A DNA stretch of 64,000 nucleotides from Patescibacteria group bacterium (lineage in GTDB: Bacteria; Patescibacteriota; 4484-211). A program made the position numbers and the translations under genes. The notes beneath the pieces were generated by a model that saw only the letters and a program-made list of their open reading frames with translations, did not search any database and had not been told where the DNA came from. Where the stretch lies: the NCBI GenBank assembly GCA_018824115.1, contig JAHJGY010000070.1:1632-65631 (forward strand). The letters are read 5' to 3'. Positions 5,056 to 63,888 of the stretch are shown here, one piece after another. The stretch's first letter is position 1, and every line of letters begins with the position of its first letter.

Positions 5056-6012
5056 ATGTTTGATATTGTTTCTATTGGCCACGCCACAGTCGATTTTTTT
5101 CTGGAGCTTGACCCTAAGATGGCGCCATTGATGTGGTCGGAAAAAAAGAAGGAATCCTTTGTTTGTTTAGATTTTGACGATAAAACCCCGGTTAAAAAGA
5201 CAAGTTGGTCTCTAGGTGGTAATGCGGTAAACAGCGGGATTGGGTTGTGTCGTTTAGGTGTTAATATAGCTCTGGTTTCGGAAGTGGGGCAAGATGAGTG
5301 GGGAGATTTAGTACGTCGGGTACTGCTAGAGGAGAAGCTGAAGCTGGATTATTTTAGGATTAATCCGGGACAGGTGACTGATTTGTCTGTGATCCTAATA
5401 CTTAAGGGTGAGCGGACGATCCTTGCTTATCACTACCCGCGTGATTATTGGTTTCCTGAAGAGTTTCCCAAAACAAAATGGATTTATCTAACCTCGCTGG
5501 GGAAGAAATTTCCCGCCTTTCATGACCAACTGATTCTCTTGTTGGAACAGACGGATATTCGGCTGGCTTATAATCCGGGGATGCATGAGTTATTAGTCGG
5601 AAGAGAGGCGAGTAGCAAGATAATTAAAAGATCCGAAGTATTGCTGGTAAATCGAGAGGAGGCAGGAGAATTAGTTGGCCAGAGGCCCTCGCAGGTGAAT
5701 GAGCAGTTATTGATTGACTTGCGTAATTTGGGGCCGGAGATAGTGGTAATTACAGACGGGAAAGATGGAAGCTTTGCCTACGATGGTAATAAGTTTTACC
5801 AACAAGGAGTTTGTTCGGCTGAACGAGTCGAAATGACTGGAGCCGGAGATTCTTTCTCGGCTGGGTTTCTAGCAGCCCTCACTCACGATAAGGGCATTAC
5901 GGAAGCGCTCAAGTGGGGAACAGTTAATAGCGCCTCGGTAATAGGTTTTGTTGGTTCTACGGAAGGGCTTCTTACGCTTGATGTTCTAGAAGAGAGAGTA
6001 AGTAGGTTATAG
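5056..6012 (+). CDS. PfkB-family carbohydrate kinase (ribokinase-like)
   Basis: C-terminal TGAGDSF anion-hole motif and the N-terminal GG dipeptide region; 318 aa. Confidence 0.8.
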   Translation: MFDIVSIGHATVDFFLELDPKMAPLMWSEKKKESFVCLDFDDKTPVKKTSWSLGGNAVNSGIGLCRLGVNIALVSEVGQDEWGDLVRRVLLEEKLKLDYFRINPGQVTDLSVILILKGERTILAYHYPRDYWFPEEFPKTKWIYLTSLGKKFPAFHDQLILLLEQTDIRLAYNPGMHELLVGREASSKIIKRSEVLLVNREEAGELVGQRPSQVNEQLLIDLRNLGPEIVVITDGKDGSFAYDGNKFYQQGVCSAERVEMTGAGDSFSAGFLAALTHDKGITEALKWGTVNSASVIGFVGSTEGLLTLDVLEERVSRL

Positions 6013-6246
6013 TATTTATTTCCTAAGAGTATAATTGTGCACACGTGAACCTTCTAGACGAGACCTTTTCCTTGCCGTAATTTGTGTAATCATGTTTTCA
6101 CGTTTCATAACGTCCTCTCCCCTTGTCTGCCGCCATTGCCTTTCGTGGTGCTAATTATGGCGTTTTAGTTATTGTATTTATGCGCTGATCCAGGCCGATG
6201 ATACGCCCAATCCCTGTTAGATAAGTAAAAACATCGCCCAATCACA

Positions 6247-6275
6247 TTGCAAGGCCCATAGGAATTGGTTATAAT
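6247..6275 (+). promoter_or_regulatory. Sigma-70-like promoter (TTGCAA-17 nt-TATAAT) for the GC-rich beta-helix gene; ~215 nt leader
   Basis: TTGCAA at 6247-6252, TATAAT at 6270-6275, with 17-nt spacing. Confidence 0.4.
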
Positions 6276-6490
6276 ATAGGTACAGAAAGTTTCTCTAGGC
6301 TTTCTGTTTTGGCACGTTAACAATCCTAGCTTTTCCAACCGGGAACTCGCGAAGAGTATTAATGGGGTCTAAGCTCCAAACTCTAAGTGAGAGGAGAATT
6401 GGGTTGATATTTTGTAGTTAGGTTTAGCTGGACCATTTAGTTTTTCCGTTTGGCGGGCACTGCCCGCCCCTAATCTCTGAGGAGGTAAGA

Positions 6491-8245
6491 ATGAGCAAGA
6501 ATCATACTTGGCTGGCCATTGGGCTGGCAGTAGCTCTCCTTGTTTGTCTGGCCGTGACTGTTACGGCCCAAACGAATGAGGGTGTCGTGGCATCGTGTTT
6601 GGTGCGCGTGGGTGAAGTGGACTATACCAACGTGCAGGATGCTGTGGACGCAGCCCGGCCGGGCGATGTAGTTAAAGTCGCCGGTTATTGTGCCGGGTCT
6701 GGGGTGTCAACCCAGTATTACATTACGGTTGACACTATGTTCCCCGAGCAGGAGGCAGTGGTTCTGCGGGCGTCCCCTGCAGTCCAAGTTATTAGAGGGC
6801 AAGGAGGGCGATTCAAGACCCTGTTTGCCGAGTCTGGGGTCGAGGTAAGTCATGCGGTAGTGATCGCCAAGTCCATTACCATCCGTGGCGGTTACGACCC
6901 GTCGGACTGGGAACAGTCCGACCCCGATGTCCACCCGGCCACGATAGATGCTGGGGGCGAAGCCTACGGCATTTACGTTACCGACGGTAACGTTGTCGTG
7001 GAGAATCTCCGGGTGACCGGTGGTTATGGGTGGAACGGCGCGGGAATGCGGGTTGAGGGCTGGTCCGCGAACTTGGTGATGAGCAACTGCGTGATTTTCG
7101 ATAACCATGCCCATTACGACGGCGGCGGACTGTACATCCTGGAAGATGATGAGGCTGAGTTGATCGGTAATACCATCTACTCCAACACCGCTGGCTACAG
7201 TGGCGGTGGGATGTCTCTCGTTCGGTCCAACGCTATGGTGATCAGTAACACCATCCGCTATAACCGTGCTGGCAATGGCGGTGGCGGGCTTGAGATGTGG
7301 TACAGCGATGCCGTGCTCCGCGGCAACGAGATCTTTTCTAACACATCTCTTGCTGATGGGGGAGGGGTGCTTCTCTACAATAGTGATGCTTTAGTGGAGG
7401 GTAATCGTATCCAGGGGAACGTTGCCGACCCCACGGAGTATGGGAAGGGTGGTGGCCTGGACCTATATGGTAGCGATGCCACCCTGCGTGGGAACGCGAT
7501 CGTTTCCAACGTTGCCTGGCTTGCAGGCGCTCTATACGTCTACGATAGTGTACCTGTATTCGAAAACAATTACCTTTGCAACCAGGCGACGATCACAACC
7601 TCCCATGAGACGTATCCCCACTGGCTTGTCCCGGTTGCCCTTGAACTTTCCCCGCTGACCGAGACAATCCTGGCGGGCAACAGCCAAGCCTATAGCGCAC
7701 GGGCTTTGGGTATCCATGACAACACCTGGTGCGCACGTGGAGTCGCCTACTCCACACCTGCAGAAGCAGGTGGCGTCTGGGAGAACGACATCTACGTTTC
7801 CGAAAATGCCGGGACCTGGACGGTCATCGGCAAGTACGAGGAGGTGAGCGGTTACGCCGAGCTGGTTGTGAAACCAATCCCCACCCACCTCGTCTACCTG
7901 CCGCTGGTGGCCCGGAACTATGAGGGACCTAGACTCGAGGCGGATCCGACTAGCCTCGAGTTTGTAGTTTCGGCAGCGGAGACGGAGGAGGCGGATGTGA
8001 CACTCCGCAATGTGGGGTCTGAGCTATTGGAGATTTGGCTCAGGAATAAGGAGGAAATCCCCGCCTGGTTTGATATAGATGCTCCGGGCACGACCTTGAT
8101 CCTGCCCGGAAGTTGGACGACCATGCAGGTTAGAGTTGATTCTGCCGGTATGGAAGTTGGCGAGTATAGATACACGCTTGCCATTGAGTCCAACGGGGGT
8201 AATGCGAGTGTCGCAGTGACGATGATTGTCGTCGCGACGCCCTAA
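6491..8245 (+). CDS. Secreted right-handed parallel beta-helix repeat protein (pectate-lyase-fold / adhesin-like)
   Basis: N-terminal signal peptide (MSKNHTWLAIGLAVALLVCLAVTVTAQ). Many repeats of the G-N-x-I/V-x-x-N pattern (GNTIYSNTAGYSGGG, SNTIRYNRAGNGGGG, GNEIFSNTSLADGGG, GNRIQGNV...). The gene is visibly much more GC-rich than its neighbours. Confidence 0.75.
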   Translation: MSKNHTWLAIGLAVALLVCLAVTVTAQTNEGVVASCLVRVGEVDYTNVQDAVDAARPGDVVKVAGYCAGSGVSTQYYITVDTMFPEQEAVVLRASPAVQVIRGQGGRFKTLFAESGVEVSHAVVIAKSITIRGGYDPSDWEQSDPDVHPATIDAGGEAYGIYVTDGNVVVENLRVTGGYGWNGAGMRVEGWSANLVMSNCVIFDNHAHYDGGGLYILEDDEAELIGNTIYSNTAGYSGGGMSLVRSNAMVISNTIRYNRAGNGGGGLEMWYSDAVLRGNEIFSNTSLADGGGVLLYNSDALVEGNRIQGNVADPTEYGKGGGLDLYGSDATLRGNAIVSNVAWLAGALYVYDSVPVFENNYLCNQATITTSHETYPHWLVPVALELSPLTETILAGNSQAYSARALGIHDNTWCARGVAYSTPAEAGGVWENDIYVSENAGTWTVIGKYEEVSGYAELVVKPIPTHLVYLPLVARNYEGPRLEADPTSLEFVVSAAETEEADVTLRNVGSELLEIWLRNKEEIPAWFDIDAPGTTLILPGSWTTMQVRVDSAGMEVGEYRYTLAIESNGGNASVAVTMIVVATP

Positions 8246-8260
8246 TCTCCAGTTAGCTTA

Positions 8261-8288
8261 GGAACAGGGGTTTCCCGGCCCCTGTTCC
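8261..8288 (+). terminator. Hairpin ggaacagggg-tttcccggc-ccctgttcc downstream of the beta-helix gene
   Basis: Perfect 10-bp inverted repeat. Confidence 0.4.
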
Positions 8289-8305
8289 CCAGAAACAAAC
8301 ATTAA

Positions 8306-8376
8306 GGCCCCGGAGGGGCCGCCGACAAAATGTCAGAACTAACGACATCGGCGGCCCCTTACCCGGGGCCTTTTGT
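8306..8376 (+). terminator. Strong nested GC hairpin followed by a T-run (rho-independent terminator)
   Basis: Outer stem ggccccgg...ccggggcc and inner stem ggccgccga...tcggcggcc, followed by ttttgtt. Confidence 0.6.
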
Positions 8377-8512
8377 TATTTACGGGTCCCCTTCTGGCCG
8401 TGGTAGCTCCGGGTGCTTCATGAGGGGTTTGTTTCTCTCTGGGTGGTGTGAGGGAGCGGCTATTTAACCCGGTTGTTGCCAGTAGGTTTCGGGCTGTGTT
8501 AACCTAATAAGA

Positions 8513-9658
8513 GTGAATAATAAACTTTGGCGCGCAGTTTCTTTACAAATAGGTACAATTATTGGGGCAGGCATTTTTGGACTGCCTTACGCTATTGCCC
8601 ACGCAGGTTTGCCTTTGGGTGTTTTCTATTTGGTTTTTCTGACAATAATTAGTTTGTTGGTAAATCTCGCTTATGCCGAGGTTATTTTGCGGACCCCGGG
8701 AGATCACCAGTTAACCGGCTATAGCCGGTTATATTTGCGGAGGGCCGGTACGGTTTTGGGCTCAATGGCCTTAATGGCAGGTTCGTATGGAGCGCTCTTA
8801 GCTTACACGGCTCAGATGGGTAAGTTTGCCAGCCTTTTGTCCTCAACACTAAACACAGATTTCTTCTTTAGTTTAGCTATTTTTTCTTTTGCCGTGTTGG
8901 CGGTGGTTTCGGGTTTAAAACGGATTTCTCAGTTGGAATCGCTCATTGTTCCGGGGATTATCACCGTGGTTTTTTTGGTTATTATTTTGGGTTTAAAAGA
9001 ATTTGAATTTGGAAATATCCCTTTGGGCTTTAATGATTTGGGGGCGGCAATTACCCCTTATGGCGTGATATTCTTTGCCCTTAGCGGCACTTCGGTGATA
9101 CCAGAGGTAGAGGAGGTACTGCGCGATAAGCGTCAGTTGATGAAGAAAGCGATGTTATTGGGAACGCTAGTTCCCGCTGTAATTTATCTGGTTTTTACGT
9201 TAGTGATTATTGGTATTTCGGGGGCGGCCACTTCGGCAGATGCTGTGAGTGGGTTACAACCGTTCTTACCACTATTTATTATTAAAATCGGTGCCTTATT
9301 AGGTTTGTTAACTATGTTTTCTTCTTTCTTAACCCTGAGTTATGTATTAAAGGAGATGTTTTATCGCGATTTTGGTTTAAATACTTCTTTAGCATGGCTG
9401 CTTAGTTTCGGGCCGCCATTGGCTTTATTTCTTTTGGGAACTCGCGGCTTTATTAGGATTCTGGAAGTTAGCGGGAGTTTAATGGGCGGCTTAACAGGAA
9501 TAATTATCATGCAGCTTTTCCTGCAAGCCAAGAAAGAAGGCCAACGAGAGTCGCCTTTAGATTTATCTTTACCACATTGGGTCATTGTTTTAATTTGTTT
9601 GGTGTTTGTTGGGGGGATGGCGTATGAGGTGATACCGATGATTGTTCGGTTGTTGTGA
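8513..9658 (+). CDS. Amino-acid permease (HAAAP/aromatic amino acid:H+ symporter-like)
   Basis: About 11 predicted TM segments; the N-terminus GTIIGAGIFGLPYAIAHAGL is typical of Tyr/Trp-specific permeases. Confidence 0.75.
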   Translation: MNNKLWRAVSLQIGTIIGAGIFGLPYAIAHAGLPLGVFYLVFLTIISLLVNLAYAEVILRTPGDHQLTGYSRLYLRRAGTVLGSMALMAGSYGALLAYTAQMGKFASLLSSTLNTDFFFSLAIFSFAVLAVVSGLKRISQLESLIVPGIITVVFLVIILGLKEFEFGNIPLGFNDLGAAITPYGVIFFALSGTSVIPEVEEVLRDKRQLMKKAMLLGTLVPAVIYLVFTLVIIGISGAATSADAVSGLQPFLPLFIIKIGALLGLLTMFSSFLTLSYVLKEMFYRDFGLNTSLAWLLSFGPPLALFLLGTRGFIRILEVSGSLMGGLTGIIIMQLFLQAKKEGQRESPLDLSLPHWVIVLICLVFVGGMAYEVIPMIVRLL

Positions 9659-48773: not shown

Positions 48774-50569
48774 TTTTTCTCCAGTGTTGCCTTTATCCTT
48801 CTTATTCCTTTCCCAACACTTTCTTCTTTAATAATTTTAAAATACCCTAATTCTGATGTATTAGCAACATGGGGTCCGCCACAGAGCTCTTTAGAAAAGT
48901 TATTAATTTTGTACATCGTCACCTGGTCAACTTCTTTGTATTTGTCTCTAAATAAAGCAATAGCTCCTTGCTTAACTGCCTCGTGGAATGTAGTTTCCAC
49001 TTTTGTTACCGAGAGGCCTTTTTGGATTTGCTGGTTAACAATTTTTTCTACTTTACGAATTTCTTTCGGGTCAAGTTTGCGATCAAAAGTAAAGTCGAAT
49101 CTCAATCGCTCTGGTACTAGGCTCTGACCAGCTTGTTTTACTTGACTACCGAGTACTTCTGTTAAAGCCTGGTGCATTAGGTGAGTTGCGGTATGCAGGG
49201 GTGCGATTTCTTCATTAGCGTATTCTTGCACTTTGCCGAATTTGCCTTCGGCTCCCTTGCGTGATAGGTCCTGGTGTTTTTTGTAGGCAGCTTGATAAGA
49301 TTCTTTGTCAATAATAATACCGTGGTTTTCAGCAATTTCTTTCTGTGTTTCTAGCGGCACGCCATAGGTGGCTTCGATGTCAAAGGCTATTTCACCGGGG
49401 AAGACCGCCGCTTTTCCTTTGCCCTGCCCAACGATAGTGGCTAAGCTTGCTTCGAGAACACCTAACCCTTTTTTAAGGGTCTTAAGGAAGTTTTCATGCT
49501 CGTTTTGTAGTACTGCAATAATATCTTGATCCTTGATTTCCGGGTAGAAAGACCCGTAGATGTTGGTGATTGATTGATGCAGTCGTTCGTAGAGATCTTC
49601 TAGCTTAATCTTTAAAAAGATCTGATGGGTAATTGCCCTGCGGATAAGTCGCCGTAAAATGTAACCTTCTCGTTTGTTCGATGGTACAACTCCGTCACCG
49701 ATGAGGAAAAAAGCGGCCCGTAAATGATCGGCGACGATTCTTACCGAACGGGTTTGCGCTGTGGTTAAAGAATCGATATTAAGCGTGGATGTGATTTCCG
49801 TGATTAAGGGTGAGAAGAGATCGGTCTCGTAGTTACTCTCCTTACTTTGTAAAACTGCGGCAAAACGTTCTAAGCCGGCCCCAGTGTCAACACTGAGAAA
49901 GGGAAGCTCCTCGAATTCGGTTTCGCTTTTACGATTATATTGCATAAAAACACCTGCGTTCCAAATTTCGTAGAAGCGGCCACATTCACAATTCGGATTG
50001 CATTCTATTCCGCAGGAATATTTTACTCCTCGATCGTACAAGACTTCGGTGCAGGGTCCACAGGGGCCAGTTGGCCCAGAGACCCAGAGATTTTCGGAGG
50101 CGGGGAGTTTAAGGATATGTTCGTCAGGTATTCCGATGGACTTCCAGTGGCTGATGGTTTCGGTATCGGCCGGAATGTAGTCATCGCCGGCAAAAACAGT
50201 GGCGTATAGTTTGTCTGGTTCGAGGTTAAACCCTTCCTGCGAAGTGAGCAGTTCCCAGGCGAGTTCAACCGCCATCTTTTTACCGTAATCTCCAATCGAC
50301 CAACTGCCAAACATTTCAAAAAAGGTATGGTGGTGAGGATCACCAACGCATTCAATGTCCTCTGTACGGACACACTTTTGAATGTTGGTTAATCGGGGGT
50401 GCGGCGGTTTTTCTTCGCCGGTGAAGTAGGGTTTAATTGGCGCCATGCCGGAGTTAACTAGGAGTAGCGTTGGGTCGTTTTTGGCTACCAAATTGGCCGA
50501 ACCAATATTTTGGTGATTATGCTTTTCGAAAAATTCAATAAAGCGTTTGCGGATTTCTGTGTGTGTCAT
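48770..50569 (-). CDS. alaS: Alanyl-tRNA synthetase (compact, 599 aa; catalytic and editing cores present, C-Ala domain absent)
   Basis: N-terminus FFEKHNH...NDPTLLLVNSGM...HHTFFEM; editing-domain HTATHLMHQAL and CGGPH zinc motifs. Confidence 0.9.
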   Translation of the reverse strand: MTHTEIRKRFIEFFEKHNHQNIGSANLVAKNDPTLLLVNSGMAPIKPYFTGEEKPPHPRLTNIQKCVRTEDIECVGDPHHHTFFEMFGSWSIGDYGKKMAVELAWELLTSQEGFNLEPDKLYATVFAGDDYIPADTETISHWKSIGIPDEHILKLPASENLWVSGPTGPCGPCTEVLYDRGVKYSCGIECNPNCECGRFYEIWNAGVFMQYNRKSETEFEELPFLSVDTGAGLERFAAVLQSKESNYETDLFSPLITEITSTLNIDSLTTAQTRSVRIVADHLRAAFFLIGDGVVPSNKREGYILRRLIRRAITHQIFLKIKLEDLYERLHQSITNIYGSFYPEIKDQDIIAVLQNEHENFLKTLKKGLGVLEASLATIVGQGKGKAAVFPGEIAFDIEATYGVPLETQKEIAENHGIIIDKESYQAAYKKHQDLSRKGAEGKFGKVQEYANEEIAPLHTATHLMHQALTEVLGSQVKQAGQSLVPERLRFDFTFDRKLDPKEIRKVEKIVNQQIQKGLSVTKVETTFHEAVKQGAIALFRDKYKEVDQVTMYKINNFSKELCGGPHVANTSELGYFKIIKEESVGKGIRRIKATLEKK

Positions 50570-50667
50570 TCAATGAGGCTCAAAAATTGCGAGTGTAGCG
50601 AAGCAATTTTAGTTAGCCGAATTAATCCGCCTAAATATGCCGTAGGCATTTTTGGCGTGATGATGTC

Positions 50668-50696
50668 ATTATACAAAGGGAATCGCAATGTTACAA
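50668..50696 (-). promoter_or_regulatory. alaS promoter (minus strand TTGTAA-17-TATAAT), ~95 nt leader
   Basis: Read on the reverse complement: ttgtaacattgcgattccctttgtataat. Confidence 0.4.
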
Positions 50697-50879
50697 GGAG
50701 AAAATAATGAAAAAGGTGGTATTTGGGGTTTTGGGAAGTGCGAAATGCGGGGCTAGGTGTCGGAAAATCGCTGATGCTGGCGCCCGCCTATTTTTGATTC
50801 TTTAAAAAGAATTTTGAGGCGGGCCGCTTGCTTTGCAGGAAAAGTAGTGCGGTAGAAGTTATTTTTCTGCAAAGCTTAA

Positions 50880-51590
50880 GTGAGTGGGATTAGTTGTGAT
50901 CCCAGCTCCTTTTTTCAAGCTTGCCTGCCAAGTCGGCAGGCTTGCCCGCCGGATTGGCGGGCAATGCTCGGTACCGGTTGGTGCCGAGGTTTGTTCTCCC
51001 ACCGCAGTATTGATGGGAGAAGAGTTGATAAGGAAGTTCATGAGGTCGGAGCTTTGACATGCCCACCTCGAGGGTTCCTTAGCCCTTTACGCCAGTCCGT
51101 CACCACAGGCCTTTTAAGGCGTTACCTGCGGTCCCAGGTCCTTGGGGAAGTCAGGTCCATTCCGATAATTATCGGAATCCCGCCCCGTTAGGGCGAGTCT
51201 TCCCAGAACAGCATTCCTGAGTTTGTCGTGGTTCCCCGATCTACAATCGAGGGCTGTTCCCACACCACTATTGCTAACGCCTCCTTTTGGACTTTAGGAG
51301 TACGCCCTGCGGCTAAGTGATGCCGTCACATTTTGCTCTCACGAGCGAGCTGTGGCCAGCTCTTGGTTCTGGAGATGTTGTCCCTTACGGAGCCTATTGG
51401 CTCCGTCCTTCACTACAAACAAGCCCAAAGGACTTGCTGGAAGGAAGGGATTCCCTTAGCTCCGAAAGGGGCTGCTACCCGGGCCCACCATGGGCTCGAC
51501 AGGATGCAGTCTTTTTGAGATTTTGGCTTGCGTTCATCCCGATTCGCGGGATACGCCTTACCCCGAATCCCACGGGGCTACAAATGTTCT
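50880..51590. ncRNA. Candidate large structured non-coding RNA (~700 nt, GC-rich, hairpin-dense, no ORF); identity unknown
   Basis: A series of perfect hairpins (gcctgcc-aagtc-ggcaggc; ttgcccgcc-gga-ttggcgggcaa; ttccgataat/tatcggaa; tctccca...tgggaga; ggagcc-tatt-ggctcc); only short GC-biased ORFs without an SD sequence. Confidence 0.3.
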
Positions 51591-51885
51591 AAAAGAAACC
51601 GGAGAATATGACTAGCCATATTCCGGCGATCGCCAGGATGCATCCGGCGAGTATGAGTACCCTCCGGAGTTTACGTCCCTGGCGCAGATGGTGGAATCCT
51701 CGATCCTCAAATCCTAGAGAGATTCCCTCATCGATCGCTGCCTTTAGGCCTAGGACTAGTCCTAAGCCTAACAGGGCGAGCCCGCCACCGGCGGCGATAC
51801 CGAGTTCTTGGTTGTCGGTGACAGCTGTTATCAGCGCCCCGGCGATTAGGCCGAGGATCAGCCAAAGAGCCGCTAGCTTAGACAT
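51589..51885 (-). CDS. Small membrane protein (2-3 TM, Gly/Ala/Leu-rich), GC-rich
   Basis: ORF; start trimmed to the internal M (MSKLAALWLILG) to give an 8-nt overlap with the upstream CSD gene. Confidence 0.45.
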   Translation of the reverse strand: MSKLAALWLILGLIAGALITAVTDNQELGIAAGGGLALLGLGLVLGLKAAIDEGISLGFEDRGFHHLRQGRKLRRVLILAGCILAIAGIWLVIFSGFF

Positions 51886-52558
51886 CGTTACCTCCCTTGA
51901 AAAGCACTTCGAGTGCCCGCTCGACCCAGAGGTCGATGTTGCGGACATCTAGCCTTTCTTTCCCCCCTAGAATTACTGGGGGATAGGGTTTTCCGTCATC
52001 GACCACTCGCCACGGGGCGGGGTACTCGGCGGGGTGGAAGAACCAGTAAGCGGCGCCGTTTTCCAGGACGCGCTCATCAGTTCTCCAGATTTCCCCAGAC
52101 TTGGCCGTCCAAGCCGTGCTTCCGACGGGGTATGGCTTGGCTGCCACCCAATGATCTCCTTTGCGGAAAATGAGATAGTCGTCATTTTCCATCATAAGCT
52201 CCCACCCGCGGTGAGCAAAAGCTGCCTTGATACCTTTGACAATTTCTTCTTCTCCGAGAGCGAGGGCGATTTCACTAGCTCTGTGGGGTGGGACCTCGAT
52301 AGTTCCGTTTGCATCACGGGGGAGGTTTCTCGGCCTCACATTGTGAGCAACGGCCCCATTCCGGCCATGGCCAACTGTGAAGGTCACTTGCGTGCCCTTC
52401 AGGTTATCTTCGGCGACAATTGCTCGCACACCACCGATGTGGTGGTGGTTTACGAAGATATCGGGCCCATCATCTTGGCTGATGAACCCGTAACCGGATT
52501 TGCCCCGGCGGTCGGGGCGGTCCCTTGTGAAAAAAACCTTAATGGTTCCGGTAGGCAT
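51878..52558 (-). CDS. Cold-shock-domain fusion protein (N-terminal CSD + ~160-aa uncharacterised C-terminal domain), GC-rich
   Basis: GTIKVFFTRDRPDRRGKSGYGFISQDDGPDIFVNHHHI resembles the CspA RNP1/RNP2 fold (KGFGFI...VFVH). Confidence 0.65.
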   Translation of the reverse strand: MPTGTIKVFFTRDRPDRRGKSGYGFISQDDGPDIFVNHHHIGGVRAIVAEDNLKGTQVTFTVGHGRNGAVAHNVRPRNLPRDANGTIEVPPHRASEIALALGEEEIVKGIKAAFAHRGWELMMENDDYLIFRKGDHWVAAKPYPVGSTAWTAKSGEIWRTDERVLENGAAYWFFHPAEYPAPWRVVDDGKPYPPVILGGKERLDVRNIDLWVERALEVLFKGGNDV

Positions 52559-53153
52559 CTTGCACCTCCTTTTTAGGTGTGGCGGCGGTTCCGAGCTGCC
52601 AACTTGGAAGATGCCAACGCCGCGATTGGTTTTCCCTGCGCAAGGCAGATAAGTGCAGAGAAAACGTTAACCAGTAAAAACTAAGGACTTATCGTCCACC
52701 TCCTTTCCCTGCCTCTGGCAGGACTAAAAAAAACAAATACGCCCCACGATTGGGGAGTAAAAGAAAAGCAATGTCAAATGTCAAAACGGCATTACTTCTC
52801 ATCTACTCCTCAATACTAGAGGGTATACGCAAGAAGGGGGGCTGTTCTTTGTTGATGGTATTAACGTGCAAAGCTCCACGTAACTACCTAAAGTATAGCA
52901 TAAAACTATCGGATTGCAAGTTGAATAAGCTTATAGGGGGCTGATGTGGAGGCGATTAGTTAGTAGGGGCGATTTGCTTTCACCCTGCGTAAAGGTCAGT
53001 GAGGGGACTTTTTATGATACGGCGCGGTATAAATTCCGCTACTACACCAACTGAATTGGGTATGTCTAAAGAGTTCTATCCGACTGTTTTTTCTATAAAT
53101 CCTTTAATTAGAGCGGTTTTCTCGGGGCGGGTAGTAGCTAAGGGTGCTAGTTC

Positions 53154-53504
53154 TTAAATCCCCCTAAAGAAACGGAGCTTTTTGGAAGGGGGTTTCGATT
53201 TTTTGGTTGTTGCGCCTGCTTTTTCCTCCGGTTTTATTTCGGCAGGCGTGTCTTCGGCGGTTTCTGGTTCTGCAGCTATTTGTGAGGCTTTATCCCAAGA
53301 TGCTTTTAGATTATTAGCAACCTTCTGTGATTCTTGCAGGACTTTATCAAAGTCCTTCTTGAATTTTTCCCCTTTGGACTTAAGCTGGTGGCGCAGTTTT
53401 TTGCCGGTTTGGGGCATATACAGCAGTACTGCGGCCGCACCCACTGCACCGCCAATTAAGGTCCCTAAAAGAAAACCTTTAAATGAGGATCTATTATTTC
53501 TCAT
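53154..53504 (-). CDS. YtxH-like small membrane-anchored protein
   Basis: N-terminal TM GFLLGTLIGGAVGAAAVLLY followed by a charged helical region. Confidence 0.5.
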   Translation of the reverse strand: MRNNRSSFKGFLLGTLIGGAVGAAAVLLYMPQTGKKLRHQLKSKGEKFKKDFDKVLQESQKVANNLKASWDKASQIAAEPETAEDTPAEIKPEEKAGATTKKSKPPSKKLRFFRGI

Positions 53505-63111: not shown

Positions 63112-63222
63112 ATGGTCAAAGGAAGAGATCGAGTCGGCAAAGCCGAAAAGAAAAAATCACAACTATCCATTAAAGAGAAAAGGCAAAAGAAGAAAGAAAA
63201 AAAGTTGGAAAGAGCTTCTTAA
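63112..63222 (+). CDS. Candidate small highly basic peptide (36 aa, MVKGRDRVGKAEKKKSQLSIKEKRQKKKEKKLERAS)
   Basis: ATG preceded by aggaaggagtgattaat (SD) and a TATAAT element; below the ORF-track size cut-off. Confidence 0.3.
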   Translation: MVKGRDRVGKAEKKKSQLSIKEKRQKKKEKKLERAS

Positions 63223-63292
63223 CACCAGAGAACGAAACTACTTAATTACACCTCGGGTCGAGTACTCTTGGTCGGCACGCCTCACATCGCCC

Positions 63293-63412
63293 CTTTATTA
63301 ACAATTCAGCCCTACTCATCACCAGCCAGCCAACCAGCCCTATAGCTTGAATATTTCCCCGCATTATGTTACAATTCTGCCGATTTAAGCGTTTCGCTTT
63401 ATTCGCGCGGCA
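63293..63412 (+). repeat. Promoter/leader repeat, copy A (-35 TTGAAT, extended -10 TGtTACAAT, ~70 nt leader with hairpin gcggcagaggccgctgc)
   Basis: About 75-80% identical by manual alignment to 63889-64000: ttcagccCtactCatca...gccctatagcttgaAtatttccc...attatgTtacaat... Confidence 0.6.
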
Positions 63413-63444
63413 GAGGCCGCTGCACACAAAAAGGAGGAATCGAA

Positions 63445-63753
63445 ATGGCAGTCTCGGTGCTTTTCAGTACGGTAGGGCACCTTGATGAGGGTCTTTTGGG
63501 GGCCGTAGAGATCAAGCTCTATAGCTGGGGTGTCCCTTTTGGCCCTGAAATGGATAAGGCCATGCGGATCGTGCGCGAGCACGTCGCGACCTGTAAATTG
63601 GTCGTCACCGTCCATGTGGGCGGCGAGGTCCCGCAGTCGCAGTATGACCAAGTGTCATCGATCACGGACCGCGTGACCGTCTACCACATGTTAGGCGGGG
63701 ATCTCTGGTTCGTGAGTCTCGCATGTGATGAGGCGTTTTTGCCCGAGGACTGA
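63445..63753 (+). CDS. Hypothetical small protein (102 aa), GC-rich
   Basis: ORF preceded by AAGGAGG at the correct spacing; no family recognised. Confidence 0.5.
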   Translation: MAVSVLFSTVGHLDEGLLGAVEIKLYSWGVPFGPEMDKAMRIVREHVATCKLVVTVHVGGEVPQSQYDQVSSITDRVTVYHMLGGDLWFVSLACDEAFLPED

Positions 63754-63777
63754 CACTCATCACGCACACCTAGATTC

Positions 63778-63810
63778 GGGGGGGCGCTTGCCCCCCCGAT
63801 TTGTCCTTTC
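63778..63810 (+). terminator. Rho-independent terminator (GGGGGGGC-gctt-GCCCCCCC followed by a T-rich tract)
   Basis: Perfect 8-bp G/C stem followed by gatttgtcctttctttctt. Confidence 0.6.
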
Positions 63811-63888
63811 TTTCTTCGACTTACCTATAGAACTATAACTTTTTCCAAATCTGTGTATAGCTTCGATTGCAAAGTCAGCTCATTTCCC

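Follow-up and report, generated by a model that had tools for sequence, protein, structure and literature searches.

A cold-shock-domain fusion gene with a structured leader RNA and an overlapping membrane-protein gene in a Patescibacteria genome

The question addressed here is what kind of element is formed by two GC-rich genes on the minus strand of a genome from the Patescibacteria (candidate phyla radiation; CPR). The whole stretch of DNA analysed, 64 kb in length, is referred to as the window, and coordinates are window positions unless a related locus is named. The first gene encodes CSD-X, a protein that starts with a cold-shock domain (CSD), and the second encodes a small transmembrane (TM) protein. 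An initial annotation had described the pair as a recently acquired cassette with a possible role in stress or defence. Overall, the locus was found to hold a CSD protein of known type plus a new candidate cis-regulatory RNA. The reading that we prefer, tentatively and at slightly less than even confidence, is that of a two-gene operon from a rare subfamily of N-terminal CSD fusions, which would form an RNA-binding module that is regulated by its leader, circulates horizontally and acts at the membrane.

Operon layout and the leader RNA

The genes and the structured part of their 5' untranslated region (5' UTR) are listed below (SD, Shine–Dalgarno sequence).

51878..52558, minus strand: CSD-X gene, 226 aa; N-terminal CSD (approximately aa 1-80) and orphan C-terminal domain (approximately aa 90-226)
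51589..51885, minus strand: small TM gene, 98 aa, Gly/Ala-rich, three predicted TM segments
52556..52666, minus strand: structured 5'-UTR motif of ~110 nt with H1, P1/P2, CACAC, SD (52570-52564) and ATG in that order
52665-52629, minus strand: H1, a 13-bp hairpin with the pyrimidine-rich loop UUAUCUGCCUU
52623-52582, minus strand: P1/P2, in which P1 (GCGGCG/CGCCGC) encloses the hairpin P2 with the conserved apex UUGGCA

A strong SD, AAAGGAGGTG, is located 6 nt 5' of the CSD-X ATG. The ATG of the 98-residue open reading frame (ORF) overlaps the CSD-X stop codon by 8 nt (ATGTCTAA) and is preceded by GGAGG; from this arrangement, the 98-residue protein is predicted to be translationally coupled to CSD-X. 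A Kyte–Doolittle scan of this protein gave hydrophobic segments at residues 1-25, 28-52 and 73-98. The small overlapping partner with two to three TM segments, as described in the initial annotation, was thereby recovered. The period-3 signal is strong in CSD-X (z=15) and in the TM gene (z=9.9) and is absent from the leader (z=-0.8) and from the 849 nt downstream of the operon (z=-1.1), which shows two real genes with non-coding sequence on either side. The corresponding NCBI entries are MBU0708617.1 ('cold shock domain-containing protein [Patescibacteria group bacterium]') for CSD-X and MBU0708616.1 ('hypothetical protein KJ596_02570') for the 98-residue protein.

The leader motif was derived by aligning the leaders of the window and of two related loci, L009 and L011, directly 5' of CACAC-SD-ATG. 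The window leader and the first ~100 nt of the gene share 76% DNA identity with L009, beyond which the genes are unrelated. The H1 loops of the three aligned leaders are UUAUCUGCCUU, UCAUUCGCCUU and UUAUCGUCUU. In this three-sequence alignment 96% of the cells are paired and compensatory changes are present in 11 of the 27 pairs, compared with 36-51% paired cells in slid controls. A covariance model built on the three sequences (R1) found two instances outside its training set. The match at L014 (36.8 bits, E ~1e-8) has its 3' end exactly at the ATG of P0010, and that at L010 lies at the truncated start of the contig. The model was rebuilt with five sequences (R2) and recovers those five loci; the window (52666-52556, minus strand) scores 127 bits with R1 and 100 bits with R2 and contains one copy only. 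In the five-sequence alignment 91% of the cells are paired and 16 of 27 pairs carry compensatory changes. These values were reached by none of 500 shuffles, and slid controls paired 36-55% of the cells with at most five compensatory pairs. The matches always abut the start codon of a CSD fusion (L009, L011/L013, L014 and L010), and the sense-strand G-U pairs favour an RNA structure over a DNA operator.

Rfam was searched with positions 50400-53200 at E<=10 and returned no match except for a sub-threshold terminator-like RybB hit, so that the leader fits no Rfam family; eight related loci likewise gave no Rfam match. A scan of IMG/VR with the leader pattern produced 58 chance matches, none of which scored with R1. 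The leader had been pointed out earlier for its length; beyond this, it has a conserved, covarying structure common to relatives and is a previously uncatalogued, covariation-supported RNA motif.

CSD-X and the CSD-fusion subfamily

The N-terminal CSD proposed in the initial annotation was identified by Pfam (PF00313) at residues 20-75 of CSD-X (E=4.8e-7, 30.0 bits compared with a gathering cut-off of 27). An RNP1-like motif (SGYGFI; consensus K/R-G-F/Y-G-F-I) and an RNP2-like motif (DIFVNHH; consensus V-F-V-H) are present and aromatic residues are kept. The RNP1 Lys is replaced by Ser, the RNP2 His is displaced by one position, eight residues are inserted between beta1 and beta2, and a further insertion follows RNP2.

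For the remainder of the protein, which the initial annotation could assign to no family, a word-indexed search of 5.8 billion clusters returned CSD-X itself only. An exhaustive HMMER scan of 1.84 billion representative proteins gave 61 matches, all within residues 1-101, and the C-terminal ~130 residues are therefore without a detectable relative. Searches with the C-terminal domain (phmmer against the PDB, Pfam, PADLOC, PHROGs and fold searches) found nothing specific beyond the CSD, and a profile search with the CSD alignment was dominated by canonical Csps and was uninformative. AlphaFold2 run without an alignment gave a predicted local distance difference test score (pLDDT) of 48 for full-length CSD-X and 60 for the C-terminal part, the core of which is a helix, three strands, a further strand and a helix in this low-confidence model. 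The sole database match of the 98-residue protein is its own entry, MBU0708616.1. The C-terminal half of CSD-X and its three-TM partner are orphans.

The best CSD matches (P0002-P0005, P0008-P0011 and P0016) share the variant M..GTIKVFFTRERPxRxGKxGFGFI..DGPDVFVH...GEDNLKG..V.FEV, which carries an insertion between beta1 and beta2. The CSD is N-terminal in every member of this subfamily and is followed by 70-550 residues. These C-termini are without a Pfam family and are mutually dissimilar, and several finish in CxxC...CxxC zinc-ribbon-like motifs. The subfamily is rare, with approximately ten 50%-identity clusters among 1.84e9 proteins; locus scans found one member in 185,579 species genomes, two in the JGI metagenomes and none in IMG/VR.

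In all five loci with readable flanks (the window, L002, L008, L011 and L014) the CSD-fusion genes lie 10-20 GC points above their surroundings, which fits horizontally circulating cargo. The values for the relatives are as follows.

L002: CSD fusion 0.5-0.64, flanks 0.38-0.43
L008: CSD fusion 0.57, flanks ~0.47
L011: CSD fusion 0.60-0.67, flanks ~0.44
L014: CSD fusion 0.56-0.67, flanks 0.40-0.43

A small TM gene, predicted to be translationally coupled, lies directly 3' of the CSD fusion in three of the eight loci with readable downstream sequence, namely the window and the two loci below.

L011: TM partner of 78 aa with 2 TM segments; 4-nt overlap with the CSD-fusion gene
L008: TM partner of 64 aa; start 11 nt past the stop codon, with AGGAGG before it

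The initial annotation had asked whether the membrane partner and the structured downstream region co-occur in homologues; a membrane partner is present at these three loci, and the structured region has no similar counterpart at other loci of the family. DUF1294 (PF06961) was not found in the 98-, 78- or 64-residue TM partners (Pfam, E<=1).

The neighbours of the relatives are housekeeping genes (thrS-infC-rplT-pheST at L008, leuS at L011 and rnpA at L013), and their loci with readable context contain no defence or mobility genes except for a PIN pair at L011. CSD-fusion modules adjoin translation genes at L008 (pheST/thrS/infC/rplT), L011 (leuS), L013 (rnpA) and in the window (alaS), a post hoc observation that could reflect chance in small genomes.

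Repeated sequence was observed at several of these loci. At L002 a ~350-nt non-coding module occurs three times with 76-94% identity (2385-2728, 5521-5868 and 7757-8005), each copy beginning just after a stop codon and running to the next start codon. They flank consecutive orphan genes of a GC-rich island, among them one CSD fusion and one gene of another type, and the arrangement resembles tandem cassettes that share a leader. L014 carries two different CSD-fusion genes in tandem (911-1525 and 1624-2133), the first with the leader motif and the second with a more canonical CSD (Pfam E=1.9e-17). The host of P0016 has a 76-nt intergenic repeat in two copies of 91% identity (L013 1191-1265 and L011 9806-9881), one of which lies within a 1.1-kb non-coding region 5' of the P0016 CSD-fusion gene.

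Surroundings of the operon

Further features on either side of the operon are given below.

52892..52919, minus strand: sigma-70-like promoter candidate, TTGCAA-16-TATACT with TG before the -10 element (consensus match only)
52727..52755, minus strand: intrinsic-terminator-like hairpin, CCCCAATCGTGGGG and then a T-run, located at the 5' boundary of the GC-rich island
52667..52726, minus strand: upstream part of the leader, with hairpins CCUGCC-AGA-GGCAGG and GGAC-GAUAA-GUCC around a second SD-like element, AAAGGAGGUGG
50740..51588, no strand assigned: non-coding tail, 53.7% GC, with many stable hairpins, between the TM gene and the alaS promoter
50668..50696, minus strand: alaS promoter, TTGTAA-17-TATAAT, forming the AT-rich, host-like downstream edge of the island

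The upstream part of the leader is shared by the window and L009 and shows one compensatory difference (CUGCC/GGCAG versus CCGCC/GGCGG) between them, and its SD-like element belongs to an internally repeated SD-like 16-mer. The terminator-like hairpin, with which the L009 contig begins, gave the partial, sub-threshold RybB-like terminator match; it is located ~130 nt after the promoter-like site and 5' of the leader motif, and is either an attenuator within the leader or a terminator that ends a transcript from further upstream. Promoter-consensus sites were found in the number expected by chance, and the site at 52892..52919 could drive either the leader and operon or a short upstream transcript. 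The promoter and terminator upstream of the motif might represent a small RNA gene or an attenuator. The order promoter-terminator-leader-gene, assembled from these consensus matches, suggests attenuation. A 38-codon ORF across the terminator (52802-52688) was considered as a leader peptide and rejected, as an indel in L009 breaks its frame.

The GC content of CSD-X is 55.8% (GC at third codon positions, GC3, 0.60) and that of the TM gene is 55.9% (GC3 0.59), compared with 44.3% for alaS (GC3 0.44) and 44.3% for the whole window; GC3 is 0.36-0.48 in the fifteen other window genes that were checked. Over the island, a 2-kb segment reaches 54.3% GC, compared with a mean of 43.9% (sd 2.65%) outside it. 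The initial annotation had called both genes and the leader markedly GC-rich; this was borne out for the genes (~56% versus 44%), whereas the leader (52559-52700) is only moderately raised at ~51%. The GC-rich block spans ~52760 to ~50740, and so extends beyond the two genes to include ~850 nt of non-coding sequence.

Other GC-rich sequence is present in the window. A second island (6100-8520, up to 59% GC), which is GC-richer than that of CSD-X, contains a gene (6491-8245) for a 584-residue right-handed beta-helix/NosD-like protein with an Ig-like C-terminus, and positions 8101-8400 after this gene form the strongest-folding 300-nt window in the first 23 kb (z=-9.9). The presence of this second, unrelated GC-rich gene means that GC-rich islands are not unique to the CSD-X locus. 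A short patch of up to 55.6% GC without a long ORF lies at 63200-63500, near which Rfam gave nothing at threshold and a sole weak rpsL-leader-like match at 63708-63831 (E=0.036).

The neighbouring genes in the window (ytxH, a 97-residue ORF, an HTH_25/RodZ-like gene, ftsK, alaS and an ftsA-like gene) are housekeeping genes. The recent acquisition put forward in the initial annotation accords with the orphan proteins and with the GC excess in all five readable loci, but no integrase was found at the locus, no tRNA nearby and no flanking repeats. Readings as a diversity-generating retroelement, retron, group II intron or T-box were rejected, as no reverse transcriptase, template/variable repeats or Rfam matches were found.

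Two NCBI metagenome-assembled genome (MAG) contigs and several independent assemblies carry the locus at 99.97-100% identity, and contig JAHIZE010000040.1 (GCA_018814785.1) matches the window at 100% identity. Contigs with an identical YtxH gene contain the island or else break off within the leader, and no island-free allele was seen among them. In three independent Logan assemblies (SRR2544004, SRR27458548 and SRR6514274; contigs among L074, L075, L076 and L078) contigs 100% identical to the window all end at the same base, 52566, which falls within the SD. The adjoining contig of SRR27458548 begins at 52590, the overlap being the 25-mer AACCGCCGCCACACCTAAAAAGGAG. The most economical explanation suggests that this leader segment has more than one sequence context in the communities sampled, with paralogous or allelic copies possible; the assembly breaks fit a multi-copy or exchangeable front end.

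The tail folds strongly. A 901-nt fold gave z=-8.2 for the minus strand and z=-8.7 for the plus strand. Its 300-nt windows range from approximately -1.3 to -7.9, compared with a background of -0.5 +/- 1.65 for the window, and in five of the six at least one strand reaches z=-4 or lower. No canonical terminator was found between the TM gene and the tail, no Rfam match was obtained at E<=10, and no similarity was detected to the fetched loci, phages, plasmids, the rest of the window or other non-coding flanks. Judged by hairpins containing G-U pairs, positions 50740-51100 point to the plus strand and positions 51180-51565 to the minus strand, and these opposed preferences do not allow a strand to be assigned from G-U counts. 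At L011 a strong terminator stands right after the TM gene and the unrelated intergenic region there folds at z=-8.3, which makes strong folding weak evidence for a dedicated RNA. The tail may be a large non-coding RNA (ncRNA) or a long 3' UTR.

Interpretation and alternatives

In the preferred reading, that of a leader-regulated RNA-binding module acting at the membrane, the CSD would bind single-stranded RNA and the conserved leader would serve as a cis-regulatory element, most likely for autoregulation or for temperature- or structure-dependent control as in cspA-type genes. The CSD might bind at the pyrimidine-rich loop of H1, and attenuation could take place at the upstream terminator. 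Bringing the RNA-binding activity to the membrane, or using it there, would fall to the lineage-specific C-terminal domain together with the coupled membrane protein, and the module as a whole would be horizontally circulating accessory cargo rather than an ancestral housekeeping gene. Csp proteins remodel RNA structure, act at terminators and prevent terminator formation (PMC4347634); taken together with the long structured leader, this makes autoregulation or thermosensing through the leader a natural model.

The nearest known systems agree with this reading in part. CSD-X resembles the CspA family and the E. coli cspA 5' UTR in its PF00313 domain with RNP1/RNP2-like motifs and in the long structured leader directly 5' of the SD. 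It differs from them in being a 226-residue protein with an orphan C-terminus of ~130 residues, in place of a single domain of ~65-75 residues, in its beta1-beta2 insertion and missing beta1 Trp, and in its coupling to a membrane-protein gene; the leader, unlike a cspA-type 5' UTR thermoregulator, fits no Rfam family. A CSD joined to a membrane-type domain is known from the CSP-DUF1294 architecture (PMC7404187), which is the nearest architectural precedent for the proposed action at the membrane. In both cases a CSD is tied to a small hydrophobic module, present here as separate, translationally coupled genes. No TM partner matches DUF1294, however, and an extra soluble orphan domain stands between the CSD and the membrane component.

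Several findings weigh against the preferred reading. The promoter and the transcript ends rest on consensus matches only, and pairing in the five-sequence alignment is somewhat inflated, as this alignment was fitted to the model. The conserved beta1 Trp is lost from the CSD of CSD-X, which also has loop insertions, so that RNA binding by CSD-X is assumed only; the structure model of its C-terminal part is of low confidence (pLDDT 60). The leader motif was not found in the subfamily loci L002, L003, L006 and L008, and the TM partner is absent from L002, L007, L009, L010 and L014, in which the downstream sequence is readable. Neither is therefore obligatory. Finally, the three TM partners are mutually unalignable, with no detectable similarity, and their recurrence could thus be coincidence in GC-rich DNA.

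The alternative that survives best, which we nonetheless consider unlikely, is a conflict module (anti-phage, abortive-infection or toxin-like). The CSD would sense foreign or single-stranded nucleic acid, the variable C-terminus would provide specificity or an effector, and the TM protein would be a membrane-disrupting effector or an immunity partner. Non-homologous C-termini and variable small downstream ORFs behind a conserved N-terminus and 5' UTR resemble polymorphic toxins and other cassette-swapping systems, as do the L002 tandem cassettes separated by ~350-nt repeats; the proteins are orphans of atypical composition in every host, and L011 adjoins a PIN toxin pair. In contrast to polymorphic toxins, the N-terminus is a nucleic acid binder of cytoplasmic type and no recognisable toxin, immunity, or secretion/trafficking domain was found in any member (Pfam, PADLOC and PHROGs), while the C-termini and the small downstream ORFs vary. 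PADLOC CSD_V, the CSD of type V retrons, matches CSD-X at E=2.4e-6. There, as with the S1/CSD of TOTE systems, a CSD acts as a nucleic-acid-binding module beside a non-coding RNA. The match is weak, however, and scores no better than the generic Pfam CSD; no reverse transcriptase or defence gene is nearby, no retron RNA family was matched and the PADLOC scan gave no defence family beyond generic CSD. The neighbourhood in the window is purely housekeeping, no relative was found in INPHARED phages, PLSDB plasmids or IMG/VR, and the PHROGs matches were to the CSD only. The defence role suggested by the initial annotation consequently found no backing.

The same variability admits a broader view, that of CPR-associated swappable cassettes in which the leader RNA and the CSD would be a fixed 'front end' behind which unrelated C-terminal domains and small membrane partners are exchanged between genomes, the tail in the present case being a dedicated large ncRNA that forms a membrane-tethered ribonucleoprotein (RNP) with the two proteins. 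We regard this as improbable.

Less probable again is a membrane-tethered RNP taken by itself, in which the tail would be a large ncRNA, co-transcribed with the operon or transcribed separately, with CSD-X as its binding protein and the TM protein as its anchor. The analogy is to the OLE RNP, which consists of OLE RNA, the membrane protein OapA and the RNA-binding protein OapB. The likeness, compared through Rfam only, is one of arrangement: a large structured non-coding region adjoins genes that encode an RNA-binding protein and a small membrane protein. The tail is non-coding, is as GC-rich as the genes and folds far better than shuffles and most of the window, and it is separated from the TM gene by no canonical terminator. 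The tail was nevertheless without a homologue in the searches made, which left no covariation to assess; its strand is ambiguous by the G-U hairpins, other loci of the family have no similar tail, and at L011 comparable folding is seen in unrelated sequence beyond a terminator. Moreover, no match to OLE or any other Rfam family was obtained, the partners have no family match, the gene order differs from that of the OLE RNP and the tail is only a candidate RNA.

An equally low place is given to a functionally neutral, recently acquired and decaying fragment of foreign DNA with no role in the host: the atypical composition, the orphan C-terminus and partner protein, and a long non-coding stretch after the operon that could be degraded sequence would allow it, but both ORFs are intact with strong period-3 signals and SDs, the leader structure is kept by compensatory changes across relatives, the locus is preserved at 99.97-100% identity in the two MAG contigs and several independent assemblies, and the folding of the tail exceeds random expectation by far, unlike what would be expected of decayed coding sequence.

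With the leader-regulated membrane module retained as the preferred reading, the solid gains at present are a new RNA motif and the definition of a family, the biological function being inferred. Most accessory genes in the tiny genomes of Patescibacteria lack annotation. The family described here is unusual in its new leader RNA motif, in C-terminal halves without relatives among 1.8 billion representative proteins and in a composition that looks foreign in each of its known hosts. If the leader is autoregulatory or temperature-responsive, it would join the few cis-regulatory RNAs that have been described for these bacteria. Should the cassette-swapping or the RNP reading be true, the family would represent an RNA-centred accessory system specific to these organisms and, in the case of swappable cassettes, an accessory or conflict system of a new, RNA-centred kind among ultra-small bacteria.

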